Positions 4,258 through 4,461 of a stretch of DNA of 64,000 nucleotides are shown here, in pieces (the first letter of the stretch is position 1; every line of letters begins with the position of its first letter). Below the pieces are notes generated by a model, which worked only from the letters and a program-made list of their open reading frames with translations, ran no database searches and was not told the DNA's origin. Source of the DNA: Escherichia coli (GTDB lineage: Bacteria > Pseudomonadota > Gammaproteobacteria > Enterobacterales > Enterobacteriaceae); assembly GCF_016026235.1 (NCBI RefSeq), contig NZ_CP065613.1; one strand, written 5' to 3'. Both the position numbers and the translations under genes were made by a program.

Positions 4258-4300
4258 ACAAAAAATTAGCGCAAGAGGACAAAAAATCACCTTGCGCTAA
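4258..4300 (-). terminator. Lambda sib/tI-like hairpin terminator (retroregulation element left of attP)
   Basis: Inverted repeat ttagcgcaag (4266-4275) / cttgcgctaa (4291-4300) with an A-run upstream on the + strand (U-run on the minus transcript); the reverse complement resembles the lambda tI sequence I recall. Confidence 0.45.
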
Positions 4301-4310
4301 TGCTCTGTAT

Positions 4311-4461
4311 CAGGTCACTAATACCATCTAAGTGGTTGATTCATAGTGACTGGATATGTTGTGTTTTGCAGTATTATGCAGTCTATTTTTTAAGCTAAAT
4401 GTATTATAATGCATTGATATTAATGATTTTTACTGTTTCTCGGTCAGCTTTTTTATACTAA
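4311..4461. other. attR: Prophage attR (P arm plus 15-bp core gcttttttatactaa at 4447-4461), junction to the bacterial B' arm
   Basis: 4311-4446 closely resembles the lambda attP P arm (caggtcactaataccatctaagt...gtttctcg.tcagcttttttatactaa); sequence after the core (cttgagcgaaacggg) matches the E. coli attB B' side. Confidence 0.8.

Follow-up and report, generated by a model that had tools for sequence, protein, structure and literature searches.

The left end of the window, a 64,000-nucleotide stretch of Escherichia coli DNA (contig NZ_CP065613.1), begins about 4.4 kb inside a prophage. Rightward from there, a tail-fibre gene is followed by a DUF4376 gene, an ipaHa gene, a fragment of an IS256-family transposase and a short phage-434-like remnant, and these are succeeded by a compact array of elements familiar from phage lambda, namely a sib/tI hairpin, a P arm with its protein-binding sites, and a 15-bp common core (Table 1). 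To the right of the core the sequence is bacterial, with a B' arm leading into ybhB and then, in order, bioA, bioBFCD, uvrB and moa, on to moeAB. All of the elements described in the original prediction were recovered within about 1 nt of where it had placed them.

Table 1. Features at the left end of the window; offsets of att sites are counted from the core centre at 4454.
Feature	Position	Strand	Details
Tail-fibre gene, lambda-type	from 41		Frameshifted at 256 relative to FDAARGOS_943
DUF4376 gene	1403-2026		
ipaHa (IpaH0722 class), T3SS E3 ubiquitin ligase	2206-3969	-	NF046045 IpaH_Shig, 563 bits (cutoff 550)
IS256-family transposase fragment	4065-4151	+	Between ipaH promoter region and att module
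Phage-434-like b-region remnant	4154-4255	+	Just outside sib; 434 homology, no lambda homology
tI terminator / sib hairpin	4260-4301	-	From fold; 12-bp stem 4290-4301:4266-4277, then U6 4265-4260
P1 arm-type Int site CAGGTCACTAAT	4311-4322	+	-143..-132; identical to lambda; aligned with lambda "int 1"; invariant in 7 sequences
H1 IHF site, bottom strand AATCAACCACTTA	4329-4341	-	-125..-113; motif search, fits WATCAANNNNTTR
P2 arm-type Int site, bottom strand CAGTCACTAT within CATAGTGACTGG	4342-4353	-	-112..-101; aligned with lambda "int 2"
Xis/Fis region (X1, X1.5, X2/F equivalent)	4375-4403	+	Position-based assignment
X1 TATGCAGTCTATT	4375-4387	+	-79..-67; 11/13 identical to lambda, identical to 434
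X2/F equivalent TAAGCTAAATGTA	4391-4403	+	-63..-51; diverged, assigned by position
H2 IHF site, bottom strand TATCAATGCATTA	4407-4419	-	-47..-35; motif search, fits WATCAANNNNTTR; ATTGATATT core invariant
Core-type Int site C, CAGCTTTTT	4445-4453	+	-9..-1; sequence read directly; C half matches lambda attP
Common core GCTTTTTTATACTAA, phage/host junction	4447-4461	+	Unique in window; identical in lambda and K-12
7-bp overlap TTTATAC	4452-4458	+	-2..+4; between C and B'
Core-type Int site B', ACTAACTTG	4457-4465	+	+3..+11; B' half matches K-12 attB
Bacterial B' arm and ybhB 3' flank	4462-4551	+	Colinear with K-12 attB right flank
ybhB	4552-5028	-	First gene right of attR

The ipaHa product is 587 aa long, a length that fits class 4 (ipaHa, ipaH0722; PMC9046306, PMC3299695), and the gene is annotated as ipaHa by RefSeq in the closest complete genome, FDAARGOS_943 (NZ_CP065615.1). 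It is the known ipaHa/class 4/IpaH0722 gene, whose locus with its MxiE box has been published (PMC3299695, PMC9046306, PMC3675035), and it is cargo (a "moron") at the b-region end of the prophage. The Shigella chromosomal ipaHa/IpaH0722 locus (ORF SF0722 of Shigella flexneri) is its counterpart: a 587-aa IpaH with exactly the sequence seen here is found in many genomes of 4.4-5.2 Mb, and in these genomes the gene has the same ybhB-proximal position and the same attR as in the window, although their backbone is only about 98% identical to it and two of them carry a 1-bp deletion in the attR core. To the right of ipaHa, the IS256-family fragment (NF033543, E 5.7e-4, residues 2-27 of ORF 4073-4258) is annotated as an incomplete transposase in FDAARGOS_943. 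Shigella or enteroinvasive E. coli is suggested by the ipaH gene together with the IS load. A literature search on an ipaH prophage near ybhB found nothing on that subject, and looser searches gave background.

FDAARGOS_943 is 99.85% identical to the window over positions 1-26000, and the two do not differ at all between 3345 and 9036, a segment that includes the attachment site. Of the 40 differences over these 26 kb, 29 cluster in 256-3344, that is, in the tail-fibre gene, the DUF4376 gene and the 3' half of ipaH, with a 1-bp deletion at 256 accounting for the frameshift of the tail-fibre gene. Positions 582-2985 are 99.75% identical to a cassette copy at a pgl-adjacent locus of another genome, and in CP049606.1 identical DUF4376 proteins adjoin different ipaH genes at four loci. 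The clustered differences and the cassette copies found elsewhere suggest possible gene conversion among ipaH-prophage cassettes.

The junction itself is marked by the core GCTTTTTTATACTAA, which occurs only once in the 64 kb, even when up to one mismatch is allowed, and in none of 100 dinucleotide-preserving shuffles (0 expected by chance). It is identical to the lambda misc_recomb feature at 27724-27738 and to the attB core of K-12. From left to right, positions 4256-4465 read TGACAAAAAATTAGCGCAAGAGGACAAAAAATCACCTTGCGCTAATGCTCTGTAT, then CAGGTCACTAAT...CATAGTGACTGG..., then GGTCA-GCTTTTTTATACTAA-CTTGAGCGAAACGGG. In a five-way alignment of the window with lambda (NC_001416), phage 434 (OL657226.1), the spacer between ybhC and ybhB in K-12, and the E. 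coli genome closest to it, the sequence of the window is phage-like to the left of the core and K-12 attB-like to its right, with the switch exactly at the core; on the right, K-12 and the window share CTTGAGCGAAACGGGAAGG where the phages have GTTGGCATTATAAAA. Set against lambda attP/sib and K-12 attB, the region is the POB' hybrid that had been predicted, with BLAST homology to lambda beginning at 4256 (212 nt, E 7e-74) and homology to phage 434 beginning further out, at 4154 (E 5e-111). The further expectation that the core would be followed by E. coli attB B' sequence leading into ybhB is also borne out, as the first 600 nt past the core are 97.7% identical (586/600) to the K-12 sequence downstream of the attB core (NC_000913 807328). 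The original prediction went on to say that the exact crossover is visible; the junction indeed is, whereas the point of exchange can be placed only within 15 bp (7-bp overlap 4452-4458), because phage and host have an identical core there.

From these comparisons we conclude, with a probability of about 0.93, that positions 4256-4465 constitute the attR (POB') of a lambdoid prophage that occupies the classical lambda attachment site, with ybhC on one side and ybhB on the other, a reading also supported by empty attB sites in E. coli with the same uvrB allele. The attR of an ipaH-carrying lambda-like prophage in a Shigella-like E. coli chromosome is ordinary textbook biology and already known.

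The P arm is a clear homologue of its lambda counterpart, although the earlier description of it as a near-copy was generous: positions 4311-4446 match lambda 27588-27723 in 120 of 138 alignment columns (87.0%) and phage 434 in 122 of 136 (89.7%), making the arm marginally closer to 434. Identity to lambda is uneven, at 61/64 in the distal 64 nt containing P1, H1 and P2, and 59/74 in the core-proximal 72 nt containing the Xis, Fis and H2 sites. Both arm-type Int sites that had been called recognizable, CAGGTCACTAAT and CATAGTGACTGG, align with the binding features that the lambda record names "int 1" and "int 2"; the P2 10-mer is identical to lambda, with a flanking G as in phage 434. H1 differs from lambda by a single change, at an N position of the IHF consensus. 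In assigning H1, H2 and the arm sites we relied on WATCAANNNNTTR, which we take to be the IHF consensus, and on an arm-site consensus that we likewise assume, and X1, X1.5 and X2/F were placed by what we presume to be the lambda map, as reportedly laid out, together with the model of integration and excision, by Landy in 1989.

Conservation across seven sequences (the window, lambda, 434, ev099, Huey, JEP4 and the P22-like prophage 720R6) follows these sites. No base varies in the sib stems, in P1 or in the P2 10-mer, and conservation is complete or almost complete in the H1 motif, C and the H2 core ATTGATATT, and over most of X1. By contrast, the stretch from X1.5 to X2/F is variable in every phage compared, including free phages with a near-identical Xis, so the departures of the window from lambda fall where functional free phages also differ. 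Binding of Xis and Fis at the diverged X2/F stretch is assumed here from predicted sites. We also considered a mosaic breakpoint at the core, prompted by the contrast between the P arm (87%) and the P' arm, int and xis (about 99%) in identity to lambda; this was rejected because identity to lambda is about 95% in sib and in the distal P arm, and the divergence is confined to the variable X1.5-H2 stretch.

The hairpin that had been likened to sib/tI lies immediately beyond the distal end of the P arm, at offsets -189..-153 (4265-4301), the same position as in lambda. The likeness holds: the segment 4258-4310 is identical to lambda 27536-27587 at 49 of 53 positions (92.5%), and also to 434 at 49 of 53. 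The element would act on the minus strand, the int-sense one, and RNA of that strand (4305-4255) folds into the 12-bp stem plus a small apical stem, followed by U6, with a dG of -19.1 kcal/mol (z -4.8; none of 200 shuffles matched this stability), compared with -20.0 kcal/mol and z -5.35 for lambda sib/tI. Only two differences from lambda fall in the hairpin, both in the loop, and the phage 434 record labels the homologous element a terminator, likewise on the int-sense strand. When 106 nt are folded, the stem is lengthened by six pairs that include the U run, in the window and in lambda alike, as would be expected of the read-through, RNase III-sensitive form. A simple terminator scan did not flag tI, probably because it allowed loops of 3-8 nt and the perfect-stem reading has a 12-nt loop, and an Rfam search of 4150-4600 gave no match at E<=1 because Rfam has no curated sib family. 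A passage in PMC5300877, citing Schindler & Echols 1981, states that sib lowers int mRNA from pL; a literature search specifically on sib retroregulation, RNase III and int found nothing, and looser searches gave background.

Could the resemblance to attP be fortuitous? The region is AT-rich and contains homopolymer runs, the kind of intergenic DNA in which chance likeness might be sought, but an E value of 7e-74 to lambda over 212 nt, a core 15-mer that is unique where none is expected, and protein-binding sites conserved one by one leave us giving this idea no credence. A genuine att sequence might instead be an internal fossil carried in a mobile element rather than a true boundary between prophage and chromosome, and there is precedent for this in PPompW phages, which carry a decayed sib-P-core-B' block inside their genomes. 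Here, however, the core is intact and sits exactly at the position of K-12 attB, and the right flank is E. coli backbone colinear with K-12 and with FDAARGOS_943, in the latter for about 59 kb to the end of the window save for one IS4 insertion. On this colinearity to the right of 4461 we rejected a PPompW-type internal relic, which we consider exceedingly improbable.

A more serious alternative to an attR that still has its partner is an orphan, in which attL, int and xis were lost from the source genome by IS-mediated deletion, leaving a dead scar. Since the prophage continues leftward past the first position of the window, attL lies outside it, and relatives do show progressive decay: UGZB01000001.1 keeps only a remnant of about 9 kb, in CP179952.1 the tail-fibre gene and the attL region are separated directly by an IS, and neither int nor xis is called, and the FDAARGOS_943 prophage contains four IS insertions (ISEc60, IS66 and two IS600). 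Yet in FDAARGOS_943, at 99.85% over 26 kb the closest genome, the ipaHa cargo and the backbone (99.85-99.98%) are the same, attR is identical, and attL, int and xis are intact. Its prophage spans about 54 kb (about 1,986,100-2,040,580), and the attL, some 54 kb from attR, is a BOP' with an identical core, GAATCCGTTGAAGCCT-GCTTTTTTATACTAA-GTTGGCATTATAAAAAAGCATTGC, between ybhC and int. Even the most deleted relatives, CP179952.1 and UGZB01000001.1, still keep a BOP' attL with the exact core, and more distant genomes with the same IpaH likewise combine the same attR and a retained BOP' attL with varied prophage deletions. An orphan attR is thus improbable, if less so than an internal fossil. Favouring a paired attR, with FDAARGOS_943 standing in for the source genome, we regard the matching attL called for by the original prediction as found in that proxy, and we predict that the source genome has beside ybhC the sequence GAAGCCT-GCTTTTTTATACTAA-GTTGGCATTATAAAAAAGC, followed by int and xis. 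The suggestion that the prophage uses lambda-type integration machinery is supported in the same proxy, where Int is identical to lambda at 353 of 356 residues and Xis at 71 of 72, and where the P' arm is one base off lambda (+60 C>T in P'1).

Two draft assemblies of the same lineage, GCA_001907565.1 (1 mismatch in 16.4 kb) and SRR17652784 (0 in 9.6 kb), both break inside ipaH. The P'1 change, GTCACTAT to GTCATTAT, is common to all three attL examined, those of NZ_CP065615.1 (about 30510 of the extract), CP179952.1 and UGZB01000001.1, whose P' arms are otherwise identical to lambda or differ at one further base. Because it is common to all three, this change points to a probable descent from one phage of the ipaHa prophages that different Shigella-like lineages carry at att-lambda.

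The prophage at this attR is probably defective, as its tail-fibre gene is frameshifted and four IS have inserted into the copy in the closest genome, which is itself likely to be defective for growth. Excision may still be possible, since the att sites and int/xis appear intact. A different situation is seen in GCA_013937515.2 (CP179952.1) and GCA_900457235.1 (UGZB01000001.1; 4.9-5.0 Mb, ~9500-9520), in which the attR core has a 1-bp deletion in its T run, GCTTTTTATACTAA, while the attL core is intact, as is the core in the window. The resulting overlap heterology should block excision in those two genomes, fixing the ipaH remnant in place.

By analogy with established lambda biology, for which we follow the model attributed to Landy (1989), the sequence of events at this site can be sketched as follows. 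Int and IHF would have recombined attP (POP') with attB (BOB') by staggered exchange across TTTATAC, giving the POB' seen here and, beside int and xis at the opposite end, a BOP'. Excision would require a complex of Int, Xis, IHF and Fis on the P2, X1-X2/F, H2 and C/B' sites of attR, and pairing of attR with attL would regenerate attP and attB. In the integrated state the minus-strand sib/tI would be separated from int, so that int transcripts made from pL after induction should escape RNase III-dependent retroregulation. After excision, or on infection, sib/tI would again lie downstream of int, where it would terminate pI transcripts, and in read-through pL transcripts sib would form an RNase III site and destabilize int mRNA.

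The spacer between ipaHa and ybhB (3970-4551) is 582 nt long and consists mostly of the IS256 remnant, sib, attR and B', and over half of its length belongs to the sib-attR-B' module. Upstream of class 4 ipaH genes, PMC9046306 describes a conserved region, modally 580 nt long and thus matching the whole spacer in length, that contains A- and T-rich tracks; the paper proposes these tracks as H-NS/VirF targets, and does not mention att, lambda or integrase for this region. The AT-rich P arm, with its predicted IHF, Fis and Xis sites, may correspond to this conserved 580-nt upstream region. Speculatively, tI, which is oriented against the transcript that runs leftward from bioA through ybhB, could shield the MxiE-regulated promoter of ipaHa from host read-through. 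That the attR module has been exapted in this way, as part of the ipaHa control region in this Shigella-like lineage, is an idea we find unlikely. If it is true, the conservation of the ipaHa "regulatory" region would be explained by its ancestry as a phage att site, perhaps with retained function; the published "conserved upstream region" of class 4 ipaH should in any case be read with caution, as it is largely an att site.

An MxiE-like box, GGCGCGTTTTTTTAAAG, lies at 4028-4044 on the minus strand, with three mismatches to GTATCGTTTTTTTANAG, which we take to be the consensus. No second site of this kind occurs in the window, but because at least one match was also obtained in 33 of 100 shuffles, the match is weak evidence by itself.

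Elsewhere in the window, fiu is interrupted by a 1,425-bp IS4 copy (38731-40155, transposase ORF 38797-40143), which is absent from FDAARGOS_943 and is flanked by a 13-bp target duplication, ACCCACGCCGGGG, at 38718-38730 and 40156-40168. A 109-aa Fiu-IS4 fusion ORF is recorded in 1,243 assembly blocks, so the insertion appears to be old and widespread in the Shigella-like lineage. Downstream of the IS4, the rest of fiu (36742-38723) is split into two overlapping ORFs (37134-38723 and 36742-37167) where relatives have one 660-aa ORF, which suggests a probable extra frameshift in an already disrupted siderophore-receptor gene. Rfam matches at gathering threshold (14031-14175, 12725-12766, 29803-29845, 35081-35151 and 56566-56608) comprise a Moco riboswitch upstream of moaA, three ES036/CssrF and one naRNA4/CssrE; the four short repeated matches of the latter two kinds are, we would guess, REP-type repeats.

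Compared with known phages, the module shares with lambda (NC_001416 27536-27738) its core, host site, P1 and P2 10-mer, H1 and H2 sites that fit the IHF consensus, a sib/tI in the same position and on the same strand, and, in the closest genome, an Int, Xis and P' arm that are about 99% identical. It differs from lambda in the P arm, chiefly in the X1.5-X2/F-H2 flank, and in everything to the left of 4256, where the sequence is unrelated to the lambda b region and carries ipaHa and the IS256-family fragment as cargo. Among the free phages compared, the best-known match is phage 434 (OL657226.1 24,7xx-25,030), whose homology extends about 100 nt further out and whose record annotates both the terminator and the "O core of attP", although 434 is a free phage with POP' and the window holds an integrated POB'. 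In 434 the b region beside attP contains an NleC gene, an NleH fragment and a fragment of IS1414, itself of the IS256 family, followed by the terminator and attP, an architecture that parallels the ipaHa and IS256 fragment of the window with different cargo (nleC/nleH vs ipaH).

T3SS effector genes seem to have landed repeatedly in the slot beside the P arm, as in 434 and in the window, and PPompW phages have espO, nleG and espM there; such cargo next to attP is already known from 434 and PPompW. PPompW prophages of STEC integrate at ompW and contain an internal decayed lambda-type attR (LC567822.1, about 37687-38046), comprising a sib hairpin, a P arm about 80% identical to that of the window, the core in mutated form (GGCTTTTTATACTAA) and some 90 bp of flanking E. 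coli B' sequence, followed by these three effector genes. This looks like a relic of aberrant lambda-bio-type excision from att-lambda, now probably carried by a phage that uses another site. GCA_049333585.1, which has the same UvrB allele, has a different att-lambda prophage with an ev099-like P arm and a MASE4-GGDEF diguanylate cyclase as b-region cargo, and illustrates the variability of the cargo slot beside attR.

The junction is also common: a full-length match across sib, P, core and B' was found in 1,923 of 5,426 complete E. coli genomes (about 35%) and in 104 phage records. As a classical attR/sib architecture at a classical site it has little discovery value, and its use is in annotation, where it fixes the right boundary of the ipaHa-bearing prophage to a 15-bp interval. 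For the biology of these bacteria, it places the virulence effector ipaHa in the b-region "moron" slot of a lambda/434-type phage, on an element that its intact core leaves potentially excisable, in contrast to those related genomes in which the core has lost a base.
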